Source: Lishizhenia sp. (GTDB lineage: Bacteria > Bacteroidota > Bacteroidia > Flavobacteriales_D > Crocinitomicaceae). From it: a stretch of 47,447 nucleotides of DNA. Location: NCBI GenBank assembly GCA_007117055.1, contig SKHH01000038.1, positions 1 through 47,447 of the forward strand. Direction: 5' to 3'. The letters are not shown here. The text below is the continuation of a report on this DNA, generated by a model with database tools.

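Follow-up and report, generated by a model that had tools for sequence, protein, structure and literature searches.

The heptamer CTCTCCC is a motif separable from the promoter-like element. Its strand bias in the window is extreme, with 37 occurrences on the sense (minus) strand against one on the antisense strand, and the sense to antisense ratio is 31:0 in the 52-kb relative (REL) and 14:0 in the left flank. Within the window, 26 of the 37 sites lie inside elements at a constant offset. The stand-alone sites are found on the same strand as those within elements and frequently flank bidirectional terminators on both sides; such sites also bracket the gene for sigma-2, the second ECF-type sigma factor, immediately before and after it. 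CTCTCCC could serve as an operator or as an RNA motif.

The complement of the heptamer, GGGAGAG, is located at about +18 in each of three predicted short transcripts. These transcripts, of approximately 68–73 nt, would arise from backward-facing element copies that lack an ORF, and after GGGAGAG they are predicted to contain an A-run followed by the bidirectional terminator of the neighbouring gene. Two of the three copies in the window are 84% identical across 130 nt, and the relative carries counterparts at the orthologous positions, REL 34586 and 35659. The short transcripts are candidate small RNAs.

Coordinates of features in the window and in two other stretches, L008 (which overlaps the window start) and L033
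Feature	Stretch	Position	Strand
Stand-alone CTCTCCC sites	window	44549, 44397, 44333, 42394, 39589, 33664, 33600, 23749, 14148, 10254, 1276	minus
Further stand-alone CTCTCCC sites	L008	13648, 14375, 14439	
Candidate small RNAs from backward-facing ORF-less copies	window	33576–33643, 42370–42442, 44309–44376	plus
Three tandem elements	window	45126–45423	minus
Elements of three decaying paralogous cassettes (cassettes extend downstream)	window	27148–27187, 28474–28513, 29005–29044	
Paralogous gene pair, 235/230 aa	window	33666–34373, 44400–45092	minus
Direct repeat, 222 nt, 72% identity	window	9236–9457 / 9853–10074	
tRNA island (Met-CAT, Glu-TTC x2, Glu-CTC), including promoter	window	8281–8804	plus
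Four tandem MORN-repeat paralogues (window 1–450 overlaps)	L008	10401–12353	
Fifth MORN-repeat paralogue	L008	18111–18476	
72-nt periodic repeat	window	135–416	
Sigma-2, second ECF-type sigma gene (33% identity with sigma-1)	L008	13772–14374	
TonB-dependent receptor gene, at contig end	L008	19175–20312	
Terminator hairpins adjoining elements	L033	2520–2600	
Terminator hairpins adjoining elements	window	16114–16149, 985–1010	

Paralogous gene pairs within the array indicate that cassettes have been duplicated as well as exchanged. Both members of the 235/230-aa pair are followed by a module comprising a terminator and an orphan copy; the second pair is the 222-nt direct repeat with 72% identity. 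Another paralogous set consists of three cassettes at differing stages of decay: one retains a 41-aa ORF (MEQKRKEKIDRVIS...), another is cut to 17 codons, and in the remaining one ATT replaces ATG. The promoter-like element is undamaged in all three. Next to the divergent switch point lie three tandem elements, spaced by 73 and 185 bp, in which block 1 and the spacer are identical (ACCGAGAGGC); their units are empty or nearly so and resemble footprints left by recombination between elements.

In L008, the four tandem MORN-repeat genes have overlapping stop and start codons, a fifth paralogue lies further along, and the 72-nt periodicity at the window start corresponds to the coding repeat of this family. 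This operon-like block has just one element copy, located where the block ends, in contrast to the array with its per-gene arrangement. The sigma-2 gene lacks an element copy ahead of it. The A-rich skew of the sense strand ends at the TonB-dependent receptor gene, a region that may represent either a junction with host DNA or cargo.

At a minority of sites, the element is directly adjoined by a terminator hairpin, whose T-run continues into the element's upstream edge (TTTCTTAAA). This composite is PeSL-like, but is confined to a subclass of sites. Finally, the tRNA island is encoded on the strand opposite to every surrounding gene, and the host-type Bacteroidota promoter ahead of it (TTTG-N19-TAnnTTTG) is the only clean gene-adjacent one that we found.
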